NCBI RefSeq assembly: GCF_000970025.1
Contig: NZ_CP009528.1
Location: 893,168 to 917,167 of the forward strand
DNA from: Methanosarcina barkeri MS
GTDB taxonomy: Archaea > Halobacteriota > Methanosarcinia > Methanosarcinales > Methanosarcinaceae
Direction of reading: 5' to 3'
Length of the DNA stretch: 24,000 nucleotides
Under the pieces are notes generated by a model. That model did no database searches. It was not told where the DNA came from and was given only the letters and a program-made list of their open reading frames with translations. The position numbers were made by a program, and so were the translations under genes. Every line of letters starts with the position of its first letter. The first letter of the stretch is position 1. Shown here one piece after another: positions 4,543-24,000 of the stretch.

Positions 4543-4605
4543 TTCAGCCCCTAAAAATTCGTTTCTACCCTATGTATTTCAGCCCCTAAAAATTCGTTTC
4601 TACCC
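4543..4605. repeat. 28-nt direct repeat ttcagcccctaaaaattcgtttctaccc, 2 copies separated by 7 nt
   Basis: Copies at 4543-4570 and 4578-4605 are identical. The repeat begins 31 nt after the permease stop. Confidence 0.9.
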
Positions 4606-5015: not shown

Positions 5016-7625
5016 ATGACAGAATCAGAAATTCCAAAAGAATATAATGCAAGCGAGGTTGAGGAAAAGTGGATGGATAAATGGGACCTCTCCATGTACC
5101 ATTTCAACTGGGGAGAAGACCCCCGTCCCCAATACATTATCGACACCCCACCTCCTTATCCTACAGGTAATTTCCATATCGGAAATGCGCTTAACTGGTG
5201 CTATATCGACTTTGTTGCCCGATACAAACGTATGCGCGGGTACAACGTAATGTTCCCCCAGGGCTGGGACTGTCACGGCCTGCCAACCGAAGTCAAGGTT
5301 GAAGAAATTCATGGAATAACGAAAAACCAGGTTCCACGTGCTGAGTTTCGCAAGATGTGCAGGGAACTGACTGCAGGAAATATCGACAAGATGCGCAAAA
5401 CAATGCTGCGCCTGGGCTTTTCCGTAGATTGGAGTAACGAATTTATTACTATGAAGCCCTCGTACTTCGTAAAAACGCAAAAATCCTTTGTCAGGATGTA
5501 TAATCATGATTACATCTACCATGAGGAACATCCTGTCAACTGGTGCCCCCGCTGTGAAACTGCTATTGCTTTTGCAGAAGTCGAGTATGAAACAAGGCAA
5601 ACAAAGCTTAACTTCGTCCATTTCGACAAGGTAGACATTGCAACCACCAGGCCGGAACTTATGGCAGCCTGTGTTGCAGTTGCAGTAAATCCTGAAGACA
5701 AACGTTACAGCCAGTATGTCGGCCAGGAAATTACAGTACCTCTCTTTGGCCAGAAAGTTACTCTGATTGCCGATGAGGATGTTGAGCCTGAATTCGGTAC
5801 AGGCGCTGTAATGATCTGTACTTTCGGGGATAAGCAGGACGTACGCTGGTGGGTGAAATACGAACTTCCTCTTATAAAGGCCATCGATAAACAGGGTAAG
5901 ATGACAAAAGCGGCAGGCAAATATGAAGGCCTGAGCATTGCCGAGTGCAGGGAAGCTGTAGTTGCAGACCTGAAGGCTGCAGGTTTCCTCTATGACCAGA
6001 AACCTCTGGAACAGAATGTCGGGCTCTGCTGGCGCTGTAACACCCCGATTGAAATCCTTTCGGAGCCCCAGTGGTTCGTAAAGATCGACAACGATGCAAT
6101 CCTGAAAGCTGCAGATGAGATCAAATGGTATCCTGACTACATGAAAGTCAGGCTTCAGAACTGGACAGGCACTATGGAATGGGACTGGTGCATCTCCAGA
6201 CAGAGGATCTTTGCAACTCCGATTCCTATCTGGTACTGTAAGAAGTGCGGGAAAGTAATGGTTGCAGAAGAGAGCTGGCTTCCGATTGATCCTAATGAAG
6301 CCGCCCCAAAGAAAGCTTGCTCCTGCGGATCAACCGAGTTTGAACCTGAAACCGATGTGCTGGACACCTGGATGGACTCCTCTATTACGGCATTACATGT
6401 TACTGGCTGGGAAAGTGAGCATGACCTCCGCCTGCCTGCGCAGATCCGTCCACAGGGACATGATATCATCAGAACCTGGGCTTTTTACACAATCCTGCGG
6501 AGCCTGGCTCTTGAAGGCAAGAGACCCTGGGATTCTATAGTGATTAACGGTATGGTGCTTGGGCCTGACGGACATAAGATGAGCAAGTCGCTTGGAAATG
6601 TTATCTCTCCTGAAGAAGTAACCACAAAGTACAGCGCTGATGCTTTCAGGCAGTGGGGTGCAGTTGGTGGCTCCACAGGTTCGGATGTAATGTTCCGCTG
6701 GAAAGATGTGGTTTCAGCTTCCCGTTTCCTCCAGAAGATGTGGAGTATCTACCGTTTCTCAATGTCTCACCTGAAGGGCTTCGGACAGGAAGATGCCGAA
6801 AAATTCCAGACGGACTCTCTCCATATAATTGATAGGTGGTTGCTGAGTAAACTTAACAGGCTTGTAGACACCGCAACAAAGGAGCTTGATGAGTACCAGT
6901 TTGATTCTACTTTCAAGGCCATACGAGGTTTTGCCTGGGAAGTTCTTGCTGACAACTATCTGGAACTCGTAAAAGGCAGGCTTTATGGCGATGATACAGA
7001 CGGCAGAAGAGCTGCCCAGTATGTGCTCTACAGGACAATTAAAACTCTCTCGCTTCTGCTTGCACCTTTCATACCTTTCTTTGCAGAAGAGCTGCACTCC
7101 CGGCTCAGTGACGAAAGCGTTCATACGCAGGCCTGGCCGGCAGTCGATGAAAGCTTCATAAACGAAGAAGCCGAAGCTGCAGGGGAACTAATTAAAGAAA
7201 TTACAGGTGAAGTCCGCAGGTACAAGTCCGAACTGGGAATGGCACTTAATGCCCCCCTGAAAAAGCTTGAGATATACAATGCAGATATTGATACAGGAGA
7301 TATCGCAGGCGCCACAAACTCAAAAGTTGAGTTGATGGAAGGGGCTCCTTCCTTTGAATATGTGCCAGTGGAAGTTAAACCCAATATGGGGATTCTGGGC
7401 CCAAGATTCAGAAAAGATGCAGGTGCTGTAGTTAAAGCTCTCAAAGCCGAGAGTCCTGCTGCAATTGAAGCCCAGGCAGCCTCAGGAAAAATAACCGTTA
7501 GTGTAGACGGCAAACCGATCGAGCTTGAACCCGAAGCCGTAGAGATAATGAAAGAAGTAATTTCCGGCGGTAGGGAAGTCGATGTGCTTGAAGTCAGAGG
7601 CGCGGTTGTTGTAATCGTAAGGTAA
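5016..7625 (+). CDS. valS: Valyl-tRNA synthetase (class Ia aaRS)
   Basis: 869 aa. HIGH-type motif [17 protein letters not shown] motif [18 protein letters not shown]1/editing-size insertion, and Zn-knuckle pairs CPRC/CWRC/CKKC. The length fits archaeal ValRS better than IleRS or LeuRS. Family assignment is by eye only. Confidence 0.8.
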
Positions 7626-7724: not shown

Positions 7725-7886
7725 AATCTGAAAGGACAGAGTAATCTGAAAGGACAGAGTAATCTGAAAGGACAGAGTAATCTGAAAGGACAGAGTAATC
7801 TGAAAGGACAGAGTAATCTGAAAGGACAGAGTAATCTGAAAGGACAGAGTAATCTGAAAGGGCAAAGCAAGCTGAAGGCAGAATAT
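7725..7886. repeat. Tandem repeat, 18-nt unit aatctgaaaggacagagt, 7 perfect plus 2 degenerate copies
   Basis: Perfect units run 7725-7850. 7851-7868 (aatctgaaagggcaaagc) and 7869-7886 are degenerate. The array is intergenic, about 100 nt after valS. Confidence 0.95.
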
Positions 7887-13832: not shown

Positions 13833-14341
13833 TGGGATTCGGAACGGTTATTGCATCAATGCTTTCGGTTGCAATCCTCCTCCTGGCATTTTATGTCTGC
13901 TCAAGCGGGGGGTTTTACATGGCAGATGTTCTTGCAAATTCAGTAATGGAGATGCAGGAAAATGAGAATGAGATAATGAAAACCGAAATCGAAATTACAA
14001 ACATTTCTGCAAATGAGGCCGGTATTTTCGTGTCCCTGAATAATACTGGCTCCACAAAGGTAGGAGACTATGATTATATGGACGTGATCGTTAAGTACTC
14101 CAACACATCCGGCATTGCAAAAACCATATGGGTTCCCTTCCAGGGAGATTCAGACGCATTAGAAGACAAATGGACTGTGGGAAATATAAGTCCAGATCTG
14201 GTAAATCCCGGAATTCTTGATCCGGGTGAGGAGATAGAATTGCAGATTTTGCTCGAAGATTCCCTGGAAAACAAGAGTGTAAACTGGCTGTTGGTAACTG
14301 CCCCAAATGGAGTCAAAGCTTCAGGATATTTTAACGCATGA
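13829..14341 (+). CDS. arlG: Archaellum protein ArlG (FlaG)
   Basis: 170 aa. N-terminal TM helix (GTVIASMLSVAILLLAFYV) and a beta-rich domain (IEITNISANEAGIFVSLNNTGSTKV). Translationally coupled to arlF. Confidence 0.7.
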   Translation: MMGFGTVIASMLSVAILLLAFYVCSSGGFYMADVLANSVMEMQENENEIMKTEIEITNISANEAGIFVSLNNTGSTKVGDYDYMDVIVKYSNTSGIAKTIWVPFQGDSDALEDKWTVGNISPDLVNPGILDPGEEIELQILLEDSLENKSVNWLLVTAPNGVKASGYFNA

Positions 14342-14445
14342 ATTAGAAAATCGGTTTGATAGTTCAGAATTAGATAACTGGTTGATAGTCCAGATTTAGA
14401 TTACTGGTTTGATAGCCCAGATGTAGATTACTGATTGATAATCTA
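14340..14445. repeat. Tandem repeat, 26/27-nt unit, 4 diverged copies, starting on the arlG stop codon
   Basis: gaattagaaaatcggtttgatagttca (14340-14366), gaattagataactggttgatagtcca (14367-14392), gatttagattactggtttgatagccca (14393-14419), gatgtagattactgattgataatcta (14420-14445). Confidence 0.9.
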
Positions 14446-14535
14446 TAATTATTCCGGCTAAGTCAATGAGTTGAATTAGATAAACTAAGGAGATACAAAA
14501 CAGTTGATCTTTGAAAAAAGGGAGAGAGGAAGAGT

Positions 14536-18760: not shown

Positions 18761-18895
18761 AATTGAAAAATGTATATTAACTAAATGTATATTATAATTA
18801 AATATAAATTTTAATTAAATGTGAATTTTAATTGAATGCAAATTTTAATTGAATGCAAATTTTAACTAAATGTAAATTTTAACTAAATGTAAATT
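18761..18895. repeat. Tandem repeat, 17-nt AT-rich unit (aattgaatgcaaatttt / aactaaatgtaaatttt), about 8 copies
   Basis: Units start at 18761, 18779, 18796, 18813, 18830, 18847, 18864 and 18881. Neighbouring units are pairwise identical (18830 = 18847; 18864 nearly equals 18881). The array starts 3 nt after the arlJ stop. Confidence 0.9.
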
Positions 18896-18944
18896 AACTA
18901 GAAGAGCTATAAAGAAAAATTCAGGGTTGGTGGGAGGTAACAGA

Positions 18945-19919
18945 ATGGATGCATTAAATAACTTGAAAATTAAAGGGCTAAAAAATCTAAAGATCAATGG
19001 ATTCAAATTTCTAAAAGTTAACGAATTAAAGCATTTGATACCTAAGCCTGGGGGCCGAGATGATATGGAACTGGGGGATTTGATAAAAAGTAAAAAGGAG
19101 GTTGAAATCAAAATCCGAACATTGTTTAGGGAAAAGGAAGATCTCGAATCCCGGATCGAAAAGAAAGAACTCGAATCCCGGGTTGAAAAGAAAGAACTCG
19201 AATCCCAAATTGAAAAGAAAGAACTTGAGTCCCGGACTGGTCGGCTTCAAGAAACCAAAGACGAAAAAAGGGACGAAATATCTGAGTTTCCCTGGAGAAA
19301 GGAAATCTTTCCCCCGCTTCGCAGAAATATGCATCACGAAGTATCCAGATCTCTTGAAGTTGAAACTGATACTTTGCAAAAAGAAGATACCGGAATCTCA
19401 GAGAGGATAGATAGCCAAACTGGTAAAAAAGTTGAAGAATCTGATAAATTTTTTAAATCAAAAGAAACCGGCGAAATCGAAGAGGCCAATATAACAGAGA
19501 TAGGGGTTAAAGAAGAAGCAAATTCTGCCGGTGAAAAAAATGATGTGAAAGGTGATGAAAAAGCCGATTTCGATGATATGAGAAAAAAAGCTGGAGAAAT
19601 TGCTTTTCTGGAAAATACAGACAAACCAGAAACTGTCGAGGTGGCTTTAGAAGATAATGAAAAAGGAGAAAATACAAGGCTTGTCTTAGAAAATAATAAA
19701 AAAGAAGAAGATAAAACTCCTGAAATGAGAAAAACTGAAAGTGAAAACCCTGCCCCTAGCATTTTTGGAAATAGCCTGATTCAGGAGTTGCTGGAAAGTG
19801 AGGAACTGTGCTCTGAGGAAGAGCAAAATTTCATGAAGTATATTGGGGAATCAAGTGTTTCTGAACTCATCGTAGATTTAAAAGAAGTAAAGGGCCTCCT
19901 TACCGAAGCAGGGTCCTGA
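18945..19919 (+). CDS. Glu/Lys-rich repeat protein of unknown function (probably coiled coil or disordered)
   Basis: The ATG at 18945 has SD ggaggt 6 nt upstream and is preferred over the listed TTG at 18927. N-terminal LK-periodic segment (LNNLKIKGLKNLKINGFKFLKVNELKHL). Four 9-aa repeats EK(K/E)(E/D)LES(R/Q)x. Long acidic tail. Same strand as arlJ and directly downstream of it. Confidence 0.6.
   Translation: MDALNNLKIKGLKNLKINGFKFLKVNELKHLIPKPGGRDDMELGDLIKSKKEVEIKIRTLFREKEDLESRIEKKELESRVEKKELESQIEKKELESRTGRLQETKDEKRDEISEFPWRKEIFPPLRRNMHHEVSRSLEVETDTLQKEDTGISERIDSQTGKKVEESDKFFKSKETGEIEEANITEIGVKEEANSAGEKNDVKGDEKADFDDMRKKAGEIAFLENTDKPETVEVALEDNEKGENTRLVLENNKKEEDKTPEMRKTESENPAPSIFGNSLIQELLESEELCSEEEQNFMKYIGESSVSELIVDLKEVKGLLTEAGS
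19131..19238 (+). repeat. In-frame 27-nt tandem repeat, 4 copies, inside the Glu/Lys-rich ORF
   Basis: gaaaag(g/a)aaga(t/a)ct(c/t)ga(a/g)tccc... Units at 19131, 19158, 19185 and 19212 encode EKEDLESRI / EKKELESRV / EKKELESQI / EKKELESRT. Confidence 0.9.
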
Positions 19920-20084: not shown

Positions 20085-20149
20085 AGTTCTTAAGATACAG
20101 CTTTAGAAGGAAGTTCTTAAGATACAGCTTTAGAAGGAAGTTCTTAAGA
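20085..20149. repeat. Tandem repeat, 27-nt unit agttcttaagatacagctttagaagga, 2 perfect copies plus 11 nt
   Basis: 20085-20111 and 20112-20138 are identical; 20139-20149 is partial. The array lies 18 nt downstream of the stop of the minus-strand small ORF. Confidence 0.95.
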
Positions 20150-20166: not shown

Positions 20167-20382
20167 TCACTGATGGAAAAGTCCTTCTTTTGCTTTATTA
20201 AGGTGTTTATTTGCTTCCTCCATTTTACTGGCAGCTTCAAGGATATCCTCGGAAGCTTCAAGAAAACCATCTTTTTTGGCTCTCTGGGCCCATTCTTTGA
20301 AACTCTCAATGTGGCTTTCGTTATGTTCAATCCAGTGCTCAATCAAATGTGAAAGGTTATCGTGACTAAGTTCTTCAGTAAT
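20167..20382 (-). CDS. Small His/Glu-rich helical protein (unlisted frame); start codon uncertain
   Basis: Manual reverse-complement translation gives (I)TEELSHDNLSHLIEHWIEHNESHIESFKEWAQRAKKDGFLEASEDILEAASKMEEANKHLNKAKEGLFHQ*. Stop TGA is at 20169-20167. Strong SD ggaggg (20394-20389) is preceded by an in-frame TGA. The codon 6 nt after the SD is ATT (20382-20380). The first canonical start is TTG at 20346 (59 aa, below the track cutoff). Confidence 0.6.
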   Translation of the reverse strand: MTEELSHDNLSHLIEHWIEHNESHIESFKEWAQRAKKDGFLEASEDILEAASKMEEANKHLNKAKEGLFHQ

Positions 20383-20484
20383 AGTTTTCCCTCCTGTTCA
20401 AAATATATACGATTCATGGTATAAATGCCCGCTGGATATAATTAGATTTTTTTTAACGATTTCTTGAAAAGATAGAAAATAAAG

Positions 20485-20570
20485 GTACTGTCAAGTTGAT
20501 GGGTGTTAGACATTCTATAGGCTCGACTGTAGCTGGGAAAATTCCTTAACATCCGTCAACTTAACAGTAC
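20485..20570. repeat. 86-nt hairpin (terminal-inverted-repeat) element, copy 1
   Basis: gtactgtcaagttgatgggtgttagacattctataggctcgactgtagctgggaaaattccttaacatccgtcaacttaacagtac. Arms of about 25 nt are inverted complements around a loop of about 35 nt. About 6 mismatches relative to copy 2, same orientation. Confidence 0.9.
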
Positions 20571-21074
20571 CCCAAAATTAATTTTTCTCTTAAAAATTTG
20601 TCGACTGAACTAATAAAAATGAACCTTAAAATTATTCCACATCACTAAATTACATCTATCTTGTGTAATAATAATTAAATCTATGAGAAAATGCTATTGC
20701 ATAGCTAAATTGTAGGGTATTATTCCACAAAAATTTATTGATAAATAAATACATTTGGACTTTTTCTTTTTTATAAAAAATCAAGTGTCTTGCGGCGTCT
20801 TTTATCATATATTATGATTTTGGTCGATGTCTCTAAATTATAAAACAGGAATTTTTATAGACTTAACATATAGATGAAAATTATTATTTTTGGCATATAG
20901 CTCGTTAAATTTATTTGCAATTAAACTAAGGTTATTTATGGAGTTTGAAAGTATTTTCCAAGTTCAGGTGAGCTCCATAAAGTACACTTAAAGAGGCATA
21001 ATTAAGTTAGCTGTGCGTTTATTTAAGCTCGCTTTATTTTGTCTCCTATATATAAAATTACTGGGAGTAATGAA

Positions 21075-21176
21075 ATGATTAAAAATAAGGTTAAAACAAG
21101 TGTAATCTTTGCAGCAATCTTGCTAATGAGCATTGCTTTTGTGTCAGCTGTTAAGTGCACAGGAGAATGCACCTAA
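21075..21176 (+). other. Orphan signal-peptide reading frame upstream of, and out of frame with, the protease body
   Basis: The ATG at 21075 (SD gggag 7 nt upstream) encodes MIKNKVKTSVIFAAILLMSIAFVSAVKCTGECT* with stop TAA at 21174-21176. This is a classic n-h-c signal peptide with a VSA cleavage-type end. The frame differs by +1 from the 21133 ORF. Confidence 0.7.
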
Positions 21177-22188
21177 TGAGCTAAACGCGACTACGGAATT
21201 AACTTTTGGGCCGTGGACTCTTGATGAACTGAAAAGTAATCCAGATTTTATTTCTGCTTATGGAAGTATACCCAATTTTACAACTTCTGATGAGAAAAGA
21301 CAGTGGCTTTCTAATCTAGATACAATATATACTAAAGCTGATAAAAATTATGACAAGGAAATATCAAAGTATTTCTATCCAAATGGCTCTGTTATTGCTT
21401 ATGGTTATAACATTGACGGTGTTCTAAAAGTGACAATCAAAAAAGGACAAAAATTAGATAAAGCTAAAGAAAATGAAATTAATAATCTATTTTCTAGTTA
21501 CGGACAAGAAATTGGAATAAAGGATACTCCAGTAGTATTTGTATATGGAGACCTTATAGTACCAACTAGTCGTTCTAGCTCATGGAGACCCTTAATTGGA
21601 GGCATAAAAATAGTTACAGATTATGGAACATCAACCCTTGGTTTCGCTGCAAAGACCAGTAGTGGAACTAAAGGTTTTGTTGTTGCTGAGCATGCTGCAC
21701 CATCTATTGGAAGTAGTATATATCAACCAACGGCATCAAGTGCAAATTTAGTAGGAAGCGTAACTACGTATAGTAACTATGCAGCCGATGCCTCGTGGGT
21801 AACATATTCTAATGTCAATGCAAAAATATATGATCATGATACTGATGTTACAAAAACTGTAAAATCGTATGGGGATCCCAGTGTTGGACAGTATGTTTAT
21901 AAATCAGGCATAGCAACAGGAAGAACAGCGGGTACTATTACTGACAAAACTAGTGTATATAATAATGGCCTTGGAAAAACTTTATCTAATCAATATCTTG
22001 TAGGATACAGATGCGATTATGGGGATAGTGGTGCTCCTGTATATGTTTATGTAACTAATGGTGTTAAGATTGTAGGAATTCACTGGGGAGGTATTGGAAC
22101 ACATACATCAACTGGCTTCTCGTCTTCAGTGTTTTCACCAGTTTCTGGAGTACATAATGATTTACATGTATATCCTCTAACAGCATAA
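21133..22188 (+). CDS. S1-family (streptogrisin/alpha-lytic protease-like) serine protease with N-terminal pro-like domain; as written it lacks its signal peptide (possible frameshifted gene)
   Basis: C-terminal half: LIGGIKI...STLGFAAKTSSGTKGFVVAEH(187)AA, NYAAD(219)ASWV, YKSGIATGRTAGTIT, CDYGDS(299)GAPVY, IVGIHWGG...FSPVSGV. N-terminal region of about 130 aa is paralogous to the next ORF. The frame is closed upstream by TGA at 21127. Confidence 0.75.
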   Translation: MLLCQLLSAQENAPNELNATTELTFGPWTLDELKSNPDFISAYGSIPNFTTSDEKRQWLSNLDTIYTKADKNYDKEISKYFYPNGSVIAYGYNIDGVLKVTIKKGQKLDKAKENEINNLFSSYGQEIGIKDTPVVFVYGDLIVPTSRSSSWRPLIGGIKIVTDYGTSTLGFAAKTSSGTKGFVVAEHAAPSIGSSIYQPTASSANLVGSVTTYSNYAADASWVTYSNVNAKIYDHDTDVTKTVKSYGDPSVGQYVYKSGIATGRTAGTITDKTSVYNNGLGKTLSNQYLVGYRCDYGDSGAPVYVYVTNGVKIVGIHWGGIGTHTSTGFSSSVFSPVSGVHNDLHVYPLTA

Positions 22189-22351
22189 ATGTGTAACCAA
22201 AAAATTTGTTCAGTACAGCTCGCCTTTGAAATGCTACGATAAAATAAACGTGAATATTATATAACTTGCTTATTCAAAGATGAGCTATACTGACTCTTTC
22301 TTTATTTTTAAGTTCAATATCTCTTGTTATAATATGGAATGGGGAAGCTAA

Positions 22352-23050
22352 ATGTGTTTAAAGATATTAAATATTGCACTATGTGTCGTATTGGTAACTA
22401 TTCTGTGGAACTGTGATTTAGGTTCTTGTTCTCAAAATGGAGATGATGTTACGGAAAATATAACACTTAGTTTTGGTCCGGAAACTCTTGATGAACTGAA
22501 AAACAATTCAAATTTTATTGCTGCTTATGGAAAAATACCTTCTTTTGGAAGTTTGGAGGAAAGAAAACAGTGGCTTAACAAACTTGACGAAGTATATACC
22601 GGAACCGATGCGGAAATGTCAAAGTATATGTATCCAAATGGCCCTGTTACAAGATATGGTTACAGCATTAATGGTGTTCTTGAAGTAGCGGTTAATGAAA
22701 CAATTGAAAAGTCTTTGATGGATGAAATATATAAGATCTCGGATTCAAAAGCAAGCAAAATGGGAATTAAGGAAATCCCACTTGTGTTTGTGCATGGAGA
22801 TCTAGCGGTGCCAGTAGTAGGTGAAGCTGTACCAACTATTGAAACAGTAAATTCATCGACATCTGAAGAAAAAAATGCTGTAGAACTCAATAATTCAATT
22901 AATAATAATCCTAAGCTCAATAACGAAAACAGTTCAAACATTGATAAATCAGGTGAAAATAAACCTAATAAAAATAATTCTGTCCCAGGTTTTGGGCTAT
23001 TGGGAAGCTTGATTTGTCTATACGGTGGTTGGAAGTTTAGGATAAAGTAA
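22352..23050 (+). CDS. Secreted, PGF-CTERM-anchored protein consisting of a paralog of the protease pro-like domain
   Basis: 232 aa. Signal peptide MCLKILNIALCVVLVTILWNCDLGSC (lipobox-like LGSC). Domain SFGPETLDELKNNSNFIAAYGKIPSF...YMYPNGPVTRYGYSINGVLEV...LVFVHGDL. Asn/Ser-rich linker. C-terminal PGFGLLGSLICLYGGWKFRIK (PGF begins at 22985). Confidence 0.8.
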   Translation: MCLKILNIALCVVLVTILWNCDLGSCSQNGDDVTENITLSFGPETLDELKNNSNFIAAYGKIPSFGSLEERKQWLNKLDEVYTGTDAEMSKYMYPNGPVTRYGYSINGVLEVAVNETIEKSLMDEIYKISDSKASKMGIKEIPLVFVHGDLAVPVVGEAVPTIETVNSSTSEEKNAVELNNSINNNPKLNNENSSNIDKSGENKPNKNNSVPGFGLLGSLICLYGGWKFRIK

Positions 23051-23068
23051 GTGGTATAGTGCTTTTCT

Positions 23069-23097
23069 GATGTGTACATATTTGTACACCATCTTTT
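23069..23097 (+). terminator. Hairpin plus T4 downstream of the PGF-CTERM gene
   Basis: gatgtgtac (23069-23077) / atattt / gtacaccatc (23084-23093, one bulge), then tttt (23094-23097). It lies 19 nt after the stop. Confidence 0.4.
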
Positions 23098-23216
23098 CGG
23101 GTTCCGTTGCAAAAAATCTCAGAATAAGCACGTAAATGTATGGATAATGAACAAAAGTTAAAATATTCCAGAAAATGTATCAATATTATAGAACTATTCC
23201 AAATATCAAGGCCGGA

Positions 23217-23302
23217 GTACTGTCAAGTTGATGGGTGTTAGACACTCTATAGGCTCGACTGTAGCTGGGAAAATTCCTTAACACCTGCCAACTTGACAGT
23301 AT
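23217..23302. repeat. 86-nt hairpin (terminal-inverted-repeat) element, copy 2
   Basis: gtactgtcaagttgatgggtgttagacactctataggctcgactgtagctgggaaaattccttaacacctgccaacttgacagtat. Same orientation as copy 1. The left arm and most of the loop are identical (one loop mismatch); most differences are in the right arm. Confidence 0.9.
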
Positions 23303-23440
23303 CAAAATATATTAAAAGAGCGAATAGGTAAAAAATTATCAATGATATGTAATTTGATAAGTAACATAGTTTAAAATCCTGAAAGTTAAGGATCAGGTTT
23401 CGAACTATTCTGCCTGAACGCTCACATATAATATTTGTTC

Positions 23441-24000
23441 TCAGATTTGAACTGTCCTTGGATCAGTAATTTCTCCTGCCAGTGCCGAGGCTGCTGCGGT
23501 TGCAGGGGATGCCAGGTAGATAAAACCGCCTTTTCCCATCCTGCCCTTAAAGTTTCGGTTTGCGGTTGAAAGGCAGACTTCTCCTTCCCCGAGCACTCCC
23601 TGATGGGCGCCAAGACAGGGTCCGCAGCCAGGGGTTGCAAGCGTGATGCCTGCTTTGAGTAGAGTTTCCATCGTTCCGTTCTCAATTGCTGCAAGTAGGG
23701 TCGTGCGGGATGCAGGAATTACAATAGTTCTGACTGCAACCTTTTTTCCTTTAAGGATTGCTGCTGCGACCTCGAGGTCTTCAAGTCTGCCATTTGTGCA
23801 CGTCCCTATGAAAACCTGGTCTATGTGGGTACCTTCAACTTCTCCCACAGGTTTCACGTTGTCAACCTGATGCGGGCAGGCTACCTGAGGCTCGATATCT
23901 TCAGCAGAGTAAACGGGTTCTTTTACATAGACTGCGTCCTGATCGGCATAAACCGGCTCATAAGGAGCAGCTGCCCGATTTTTCAGGAAGTTAAAGGTTT
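23441..24000 (-). CDS. Aconitase-family dehydratase large subunit (3-isopropylmalate dehydratase LeuC or homoaconitase HacA), C-terminal part; continues beyond window
   Basis: The frame is open to the window end: ...[37 protein letters not shown]...[35 protein letters not shown]...[19 protein letters not shown]. Cluster-ligand Cys motifs are present. The LeuC and HacA paralogs cannot be separated by eye. Confidence 0.88.

Follow-up and report, generated by a model that had tools for sequence, protein, structure and literature searches.

How did a protease cassette, bracketed by two direct copies of a long hairpin, come to lie between the hacA gene and a gene of the DUF8180 family in Methanosarcina barkeri MS? 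The question is raised by 24,000 nucleotides (nt) of contig NZ_CP009528.1 (positions 893,168 to 917,167), a stretch which was analysed as a whole and is referred to here as the window. A preliminary description of this DNA had noted the hairpins, proposing that the DNA between them was acquired, or mobilised by recombination between the repeats, and that the repeats themselves were either RNA-level structures or mobile elements. We find that positions 20484–23303 are a single 2,820-bp insertion into the hacA-DUF8180 spacer. We further suggest, with a probability of roughly 0.7, that the hairpins are a miniature inverted-repeat transposable element (MITE) of the IS6 type, IS standing for insertion sequence, and that the whole unit is an IS6-style pseudo-compound transposon.

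A single insertion into the hacA-DUF8180 spacer

Both host genes are transcribed from the minus strand. The insertion lies 137 nt upstream of the start codon of the 59-aa DUF8180 gene (20167–20346, Pfam PF26551) and 137 nt downstream of the stop codon of hacA, the methanogen homoaconitase large subunit, the 3' part of which occupies 23441–24000. CP009526.1 (locus L027), which we take to be M. barkeri Wiesmoor, encodes an identical 59-aa DUF8180 protein, and its hacA-DUF8180 spacer is only 276 nt long, as it is on three short-read contigs that code for the same protein. In blastn this short spacer aligns to window positions 23500 to 23304 (78%) and 20481 to 20300 (90%), with nothing between. 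In a more distant genome (L025) hacA is followed directly by the DUF8180 gene, while in two further genomes hacA adjoins archaellum genes. A profile of the hairpin found no copy in L027, L025 or the other hacA loci examined. These empty, hairpin-free spacers in relatives indicate that the ancestral spacer was empty and that cassette and hairpins came together. The view that the bracketed DNA was acquired is thus borne out by a close relative and an outgroup, both of which lack cassette and repeats at the orthologous position.

The ends of the insertion carry the mark of transposition. Immediately outside the outer tips, the 8-mers AAAATAAA (20476–20483, the left target-site duplication, abutting the GG tip of copy 1) and AAAATATA (23304–23311, the right one) agree at 7 of 8 positions, and the empty site holds a single AAAATAGA; the duplication at this spacer is also written AAAATANA. 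Random local 8-mers would match at 7 or more of 8 positions with a probability of 0.0026. A 6-bp duplication (AAAATA) with asymmetric ends had been considered, and was replaced by the 8-bp reading after the GG tips were recognised. The inner flanks, CCAAAATT for copy 1 and AAGGCCGG for copy 2, match nothing, including their own outer flanks. As the outer flanks match each other and the inner ones do not, one insertion event took place and not two. The unit therefore has paired terminal copies in direct orientation round passenger DNA, one outer duplication and an empty site in relatives, as a composite transposon should.

It could be argued that two MITEs inserted independently on either side of a cassette already resident in the spacer, since homologous cassettes without MITEs do exist (L013, L119 and L121, described below). 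This is hardly credible, however, as the cassette and both MITEs are jointly missing from the empty site, and neither copy has matching flanks of its own.

Recombination between the repeats was one of the routes proposed in the preliminary description, and in its most explicit form a circular cassette with one hairpin would have recombined, site-specifically or by homology, into a resident hairpin acting as an attC- or att-like site, leaving hybrid copies. Direct repeats do flank the insert, and the copies look mosaic, the left arms having stayed identical while the right arms diverged. Folded hairpin sites are also the substrates of integron integrases. Against this, an empty site with a single repeat copy was expected and the empty sites hold none, and recombination at a resident site would not by itself make an 8-bp duplication. 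Pfam searches detected neither transposase nor integrase in the window, in line with what had been noted by eye, and no integrase lies within 10 kb beyond it. Motifs resembling GTTRRRY and RYYYAAC are visible by eye, but at the loop end of the stem and in reverse order, not at its base as in attC; attC sites have R''/R' boxes at the base of the stem, come in cassette arrays and have an intI gene nearby, a description that the element does not fit. We rejected the attC-like reading on account of the duplication, of the end sequences and of the missing integrase, and the recombination model as a whole appears very improbable. A two-step variant, in which a solo MITE arrived first and recombination followed, stays conceivable. 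Taken together, the lack of any repeat at the empty site and the 8-bp duplication round the unit point to DDE-type transposition of the unit rather than recombination at a resident repeat.

Gene order round hacA varies among Methanosarcina, and the region appears to be prone to rearrangement. In CP009516.1 (L023, 6563–7687) an IS605 OrfB/TnpB gene lies directly upstream of hacA, and in L025 (9243–10018) pyruvate-oxidoreductase genes come after the hacA-DUF8180 pair, in the place taken in M. barkeri by the archaellum operon.

The hairpin element and its copies

The two hairpins had been described as direct 86-nt copies at 20485–20570 and 23217–23302 with about six differences, which agrees with our alignment (same orientation, 6 of 86 positions different, blastn identity 94% over 85 nt); a repeat search of the window returned a two-copy direct family at 20485–20578 and 23217–23310. 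Read from the junctions, however, the true element is 88 bp long, so that the earlier coordinates fall short by one base at each end. Copy 1 occupies 20484–20571 on the plus strand, has intact GG...CC tips and arms of about 26 bp, and reads GGTACTGTC...GACAGTACC. Copy 2 occupies 23216–23303, direct to copy 1 and likewise on the plus strand, reads AGTACTGTC...GACAGTATC, and has mutated tips (AG.../...TC versus GG.../...CC). Seven of the 88 positions differ once the tips are included. In both copies, arms of 23–26 nt stand on either side of an asymmetric centre of about 36 nt, close to the 25 and 35 nt first estimated, and the window contains four matches to a pattern derived from the arms, where shuffled sequence gives an expectation of 0.00. 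The left arms, which had been called identical, are so within the 86 nt, but at the outermost tip base copy 1 has G where copy 2 has A. The right arm holds 5 of the 7 differences, as had been noticed, and all seven are transitions. The suggestion that the hairpins are MITE-like fits what we see: the element is small, leaves no room for a gene, and is bounded by terminal inverted repeats of an IS type, specifically IS6-like ones.

When a degenerate 23-nt pattern of the arm was run against 185,579 species genomes, it yielded one true extra locus (L001, 92% identical) and one chance match (L002). The L001 copy, at 1988–2075, lies in an unrelated A/T-rich spacer of an uncultured Methanosarcinaceae metagenome-assembled genome, adjoining the gene of a 154-aa membrane protein, with a nucleotidyltransferase/HEPN pair close by. 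Its 26-bp inverted repeat is nearly perfect (25/26), and the ancestral element would therefore have been a clean pair of terminal repeats. Polarised by L001, the derived changes number two in copy 1 and five in copy 2, the latter including both tip dinucleotides. In metagenomes a 20-nt conserved core found only L033 (1604–1667), which is the same locus as L001 on a contig that breaks inside the element. The core had no match among viral sequences, where a 15-nt tip gave 84 matches, none of them like the element, and the plasmid and phage collections gave no match. M. barkeri loci carry only the two copies at the hacA-DUF8180 site, making three loci in all the collections searched, a count that applies to exact matches of the 20–23-nt patterns; the species-genome scan did not return the window's own locus, as would be expected if it lay in one of the masked stretches of the scanned records, and the complete M. 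barkeri genome was perhaps outside the scanned set. The element thus does not recur at many unrelated intergenic sites, a pattern that would have told against the idea of an acquired cassette; the searches brought up one other locus only. A high-copy MITE was rejected on the strength of these scans of genomes, metagenomes, viruses, plasmids and phages.

Could the hairpins instead be functional as RNA or as single-strand structures, for instance as processing sites, terminators, insulators or small RNAs, with their placement being regulatory? Each copy folds into one long hairpin with two small internal stem-loops, and the predicted fold is very stable, with a minimum free energy of −38.4 kcal/mol for copy 1 and −38.2 kcal/mol for copy 2 (z = −7.5 and −6.3; 0 of 200 shuffles as stable). 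The plus strand folds better than the minus strand (−38 versus −31 to −33 kcal/mol), and copy 2 is placed between two convergent genes. Comparison of the copies does not bear this out. With L001 as a third sequence, none of 35 pairs shows compensatory change, the one-sided changes leave five wobble and five broken pairs, and the covariation term is unfavourable, three sequences giving such a test little power. Rfam returned no match at gathering score and, at a permissive threshold, only sub-threshold plant miRNA hairpins; a search for tRNA and tmRNA was negative. The differences that keep G-U pairing had been taken to fit an RNA-level structure. A transition in one arm, however, turns a G-C pair into G-T without any selection, which explains that impression, since all differences are transitions. 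The presence of the element at three loci only, and its absence from the orthologous spacer in relatives, speak against such a role as well. There is no support for a conserved RNA structure, and we regard a regulatory function as the origin of this arrangement as a slim prospect. Annotation of the hairpins as RNA genes or as terminators is to be avoided.

Similarity of the ends to IS6 elements

Members of the IS6 family have GG tips, a cTGTt motif and 8-bp target repeats (PMC7986276), and archaeal IS6 repeats are at least 18 bp long, often start with GG, and have G at position 7 and no G at position 10 (PMC6807381). The hairpin element shows all of these sequence features (GG, G at position 7, CTGT, repeat length, no G at position 10), save that the tips of copy 2 are mutated to AG/GA, and the 8-bp direct target repeat is present round the composite at 7 of 8 positions. 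Its tip GGTACTGTCAAGTTG agrees with the terminal repeat GGCACTGTCTAGTTG of ISH17, an annotated IS6-like element of Haloarcula marismortui pNG500 (RefSeq), at 13 of 15 positions in register from the tip, with a binomial chance of about 1e-6 per comparison. Taking the tips of copy 1 and L001 together (GGTACTGTCAAGTTG or GGTTCTGTCAAGTTG), the match to the ISH17 repeat is 12–13 of 15, the repeats of our element being about 26 bp. Two independent ISH17-type copies on pNG500 are flanked by perfect 8-bp duplications, TCCCCGAG and CATAGAAC, which abut the GG tip. Homologues of the ISH17 transposase carry PF13610 (DDE_Tnp_IS240) and are named IS6 family transposase. The ends of ISH15, likewise annotated as IS6-like and located on pNG500, are unlike those of the hairpin element, so that the similarity to ISH17 is not a generic one; the comparison covered two archaeal IS types only, these being ISH17 and ISH15.

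In IS6 pseudo-compound transposons the IS copies occur "invariably as flanking direct repeats", owing to the cointegrate mechanism (PMC7986276). GG tips, an 8-bp duplication and direct flanking copies are together the signature of IS6/IS26 pseudo-compound transposons, and it is on this combination that we would read the hairpins as an IS6-type MITE.

Several observations weigh against this assignment. No IS6-type transposase was detected by Pfam in the window, nor by tblastn with the ISH17 and ISH15 transposases in about 390 kb of Methanosarcinaceae loci, and the best 120 homologues of the ISH17 transposase are all haloarchaeal, with no partner from Methanosarcinaceae among them. The combination of GG tips and 8-bp duplications is shared by IS families other than IS6, namely IS1595 and ISL3. 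For any composite with near-palindromic ends there is an even chance that the copies are direct, so that their orientation amounts to a two-to-one argument. Position 7 of the 8-bp duplication reads A, T and G in the three sequences, for which two later substitutions are needed. The flanks of the L001 copy, TAAATATA and TAAAAAAT, agree at 5 of 8 positions, leaving no clean duplication round a single MITE, and the many dispersed copies expected of a MITE are reduced here to three loci. Finally, the IS26 transposase is reported to prefer action in cis, making mobilisation of a MITE in trans less obvious (PMC7986276). The low copy number would fit such a cis preference of IS26-type transposases (PMC7986276), a link that we draw ourselves.

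These points bear on the chief competing explanation, a composite bounded by MITEs of another DDE family, IS1595-like or ISL3-like, which would have moved by cut-and-paste or copy-paste transposition through its outer ends, the direct orientation being accidental. A single insertion, a target duplication and inverted outer ends would be compatible with a composite of any DDE family, the Methanosarcinaceae loci searched yielded no IS6 transposase, and the ends were compared with ISH17 and ISH15 alone. However, the match to ISH17 at 13 of 15 positions in register, along with GG, G at position 7 and CTGT, is specific (PMC6807381), and ISH15 shows no such match. We therefore consider another DDE family unlikely, if worth keeping in mind.

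A different class of element is suggested by the hairpins themselves, which stand in direct orientation at both ends of a cargo unit and recall the similar same-orientation hairpin ends of a palindrome-associated transposable element (PATE). The unit would then be a PATE-like single-strand element of IS200/IS605 type, moved by a Y1 HUH transposase. Genes for IS605-family TnpB are common in Methanosarcina, one of them lying beside hacA in L023. IS200/IS605 elements, however, leave the target unduplicated, and their hairpins are short and sub-terminal, unlike the 26-bp terminal inverted repeats seen here. Our locus has an 8-bp duplication and tips that match the terminal repeat of an IS6 element; duplication and end sequences led us to reject this reading, the residual likelihood of which is negligible.

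Cargo genes and their relatives

The DNA between the copies holds only the protease and pro-domain genes, as had been described. On the plus strand it begins with a non-coding A/T-rich leader (20572–21074; GC content 0.26 over 20572–21138), followed by a fragment coding for the signal peptide of the protease (21075–21176), which is out of frame with the main open reading frame (ORF). Cargo gene 1 (21139–22188, plus strand, 349 aa as called) encodes an S1 serine protease of the chymotrypsin/streptogrisin type with an N-terminal pro-region; S1 family peptidase or streptogrisin B is the name given to its homologues, and the translation has a GDSGAP motif. Cargo gene 2 (22352–23050, plus strand, 232 aa) has a first part of about 130 aa that is paralogous to the protease pro-region, the two paralogous stretches having 75–80% nucleotide identity. 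Its product ends in PGFGLLGSLICLYGGWKFRIK after an Asn/Ser-rich linker. By eye only, this C-terminus resembles the archaeal PGF-CTERM signal; no NCBIfam or Pfam model for it matched gene 2.

A 1-nt insertion (GTT-A-AGT, near 21152) cuts the protease ORF off from its signal peptide, the upstream frame reading MIKNKVKTSVIFAAILLMSIAFVSAV and then a stop. An intact 370-aa relative, P0361, from a JGI metagenome reads through, and P0001 is also in frame. The 349-aa call is common to all loci of the reference strains, and the protease gene has the look of a pseudogene of recent origin or of a non-secreted form; judged from the reading frames, the protease is probably no longer secreted. For annotation purposes, the protease gene is frameshifted in the reference strains.

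The stretch had been judged by eye to be richer in A/T and in A/T-ending codons than its surroundings, and measurement agrees: the GC content of the insert is 0.334 versus 0.411 in the rest of the window, and the GC content at third codon positions (GC3) is 0.186 for gene 1 and 0.249 for gene 2 against 0.33–0.49 for every other gene of the window. Composition equal to the genome average would have counted against acquisition, and the values lie below the window average. However, a paralogous cassette resident in the same genome has GC3 of 0.216 and 0.286, so that low GC3 is a trait of the gene family and no independent sign of foreignness.

The exact 232-aa protein is encoded on CP008746.1 and CP009530.1 (presumably M. 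barkeri CM1 and 227, respectively), on BBEF01000086 and in many short-read assemblies, and where it is encoded both hairpin copies are present with identical sequences. The 349-aa protease is also encoded on a 4,533,209-bp contig. Beyond this locus, protease and pro-domain genes form a recurrent two-gene unit in Methanosarcinaceae (L013/L014, L119 and L121). The paralogous cassette of the same genome (L013/L014, 10001–12019; CP008746.1 at about 0.53 Mb, and CP009530.1) shares 72% DNA identity with the inserted one, homology starting at about 20935; positions 20572–20934 have no match in any fetched locus. The closest outside relative (L121, 8001–9882), on a 367-kb contig whose cluster is named uncultured Methanomethylovorans, shares 79% DNA identity and adjoins fragments of IS4/IS5-type DDE_Tnp_1 transposases. 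A third cassette is found at 6001–8013 of L119, and also in L120. The inserted cassette is thus nearer to a foreign copy (79%) than to the resident paralogue (72%), which fits import.

The hairpin is absent from all of these (L013/L014, L119/L120, L121), and we accordingly rejected the hairpins as a part of the cassette family. Related genomes carrying the same two genes without the repeats had been named beforehand as grounds for rejecting the cassette hypothesis. Related and paralogous cassettes without repeats do exist, yet the cassettes of L013, L119 and L121 imply that the repeats are the vehicle and not part of the gene family, so that we do not take this as a refutation. Tandem or segmental duplication was also rejected as the origin of the repeats: the gene halves are 1,255–1,267 nt apart versus 2,732 nt for the hairpins, and L013 has no hairpin.

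Proposed course of the insertion

On our preferred reading, that of an IS6-style pseudo-compound transposon, the unit would have entered the hacA-DUF8180 spacer in the M. barkeri lineage of the window. Its ends would be an 88-bp non-autonomous MITE consisting of two archaeal IS6 (ISH17-like) repeats of about 26 bp with 36 bp between them, on which an IS6-family DDE transposase supplied in trans, a hypothetical partner enzyme, may have acted. Replicative IS6 transposition could then have fused a small donor, with one MITE and the protease and pro-domain genes, to the chromosome, and this cointegrate fusion would leave two direct MITE copies round the cargo as well as an 8-bp target duplication. 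Alternatively, a preformed pseudo-compound transposon may have moved as a unit. We infer the transposase family, its supply in trans and the cointegrate route, the last of these from the direct orientation of the copies only. In a still more specific and tentative version, a circle of one MITE and the cassette passed between genera of Methanosarcinaceae by the action of an archaeal IS6-like transposase in trans, in the manner of an IS26-style translocatable unit; this is possible, and we would not lean on it.

After insertion, the two copies would have come to differ by seven transitions, both tips of copy 2 would have mutated, and the protease would have been frameshifted. Mutated tips, drift between the copies and the frameshift suggest that the unit is now a fossil, probably no longer mobile.

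Comparison with known systems and significance

The nearest structural counterparts are the IS6/IS26 pseudo-compound transposons Tn610, Tn4003 and Tn2680 (PMC7986276). Both those and the unit described here have direct terminal copies round a passenger, GG and CTGT at the tips and an outer 8-bp duplication, a structure that results from cointegrate formation or from insertion of a translocatable unit. The flanks of the bacterial examples, however, are IS copies of about 800 bp that encode a transposase, unlike our 88-bp non-coding MITEs, for which no cognate transposase was found, and their cargo consists of resistance genes rather than a secreted-protease cassette in a methanogenic archaeon. 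ISH17 shares with the element a terminal repeat (13 of 15 at the tip) and an 8-bp duplication that abuts GG. It is otherwise a 745-bp autonomous IS with a 226-aa PF13610 transposase and repeats of about 15 bp, compared with 88 bp and about 26-bp repeats here; it belongs to a different archaeal class and has no similarity to the element outside the tips.

Paired miniature elements round genes, with one target duplication round the whole unit and mobilisation in trans, are also seen in bacterial MITE composites such as integron mobilization units, the MITE-flanked class 1 integrons of Acinetobacter and TIME-COMPs (PMC13367494, PMC6382973, PMC3575428). Those belong to Tn3, IS5 or other families, typically have 5-bp duplications and carry resistance genes, whereas the present unit comes from an archaeon and combines ends of IS6 type with an 8-bp duplication. 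ISfinder has entries for only two IS6-derived MITEs, MITEBth2 with 227 bp and MITEHarch3 with 336 bp (PMC7986276, PMC6807381). Compared by description only, these are non-coding and keep both IS6-type ends, as does the 88-bp element, which is much shorter; they are not reported as paired carriers of cargo in PMC6807381 and PMC7986276. A limited literature search found no report of IS6 elements or MITEs of this kind in Methanosarcina, nor of an archaeal IS6-type MITE pair with cargo.

A MITE-bounded cargo unit is an ordinary kind of mobile DNA, rarely documented in archaea. If the translocatable-unit reading is true, the unit would be smaller than any IS6-type vehicle known so far, and a pseudo-compound transposon bounded by MITEs would have been described for the first time in Archaea. 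The locus preserves a gene acquisition by a model methanogen that is dated and resolved to the base: filled and empty alleles are both known, the target is duplicated and the ends are defined. It suggests that IS6-type machinery, best known for building up the antibiotic-resistance regions of bacteria, may also shuttle ordinary cargo in Methanosarcinaceae by means of a tiny element. The 26-bp ends, with the pattern GG[TA][AT]CTGTCAAGTTG, provide a probe for the partner transposase, and should that enzyme prove active, genetic work on Methanosarcina could employ the 88-bp element as a minimal transposon end.

Other features of the window

The remaining genes of the window encode an oligopeptide ABC transporter, a class I tRNA synthetase, a DsrE protein, HMG-CoA reductase and the archaellum operon, in addition to DUF8180 and hacA. 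Perfect or near-perfect tandem arrays lie between genes at 788–872 (22 nt × 3.9, 100%), 7725–7876 (18 nt × 8.4, 97%), 14340–14451 (26 nt × 4.2), 18777–18895 (17 nt × 7, in a stretch of 15% GC) and 20085–20149 (27 nt × 2.4, 100%). The A/T-rich spacer between the ABC permease and tRNA synthetase genes contains an exact 28-nt direct repeat (4543–4570 and 4578–4605, spaced 35 nt). An ORF that follows the archaellum operon (18927–19919) has a coding 27-nt repeat at 19131–19236 (KKELESR-like), and is called at 315, 324 and 330 aa among strains, which suggests variation in repeat number.

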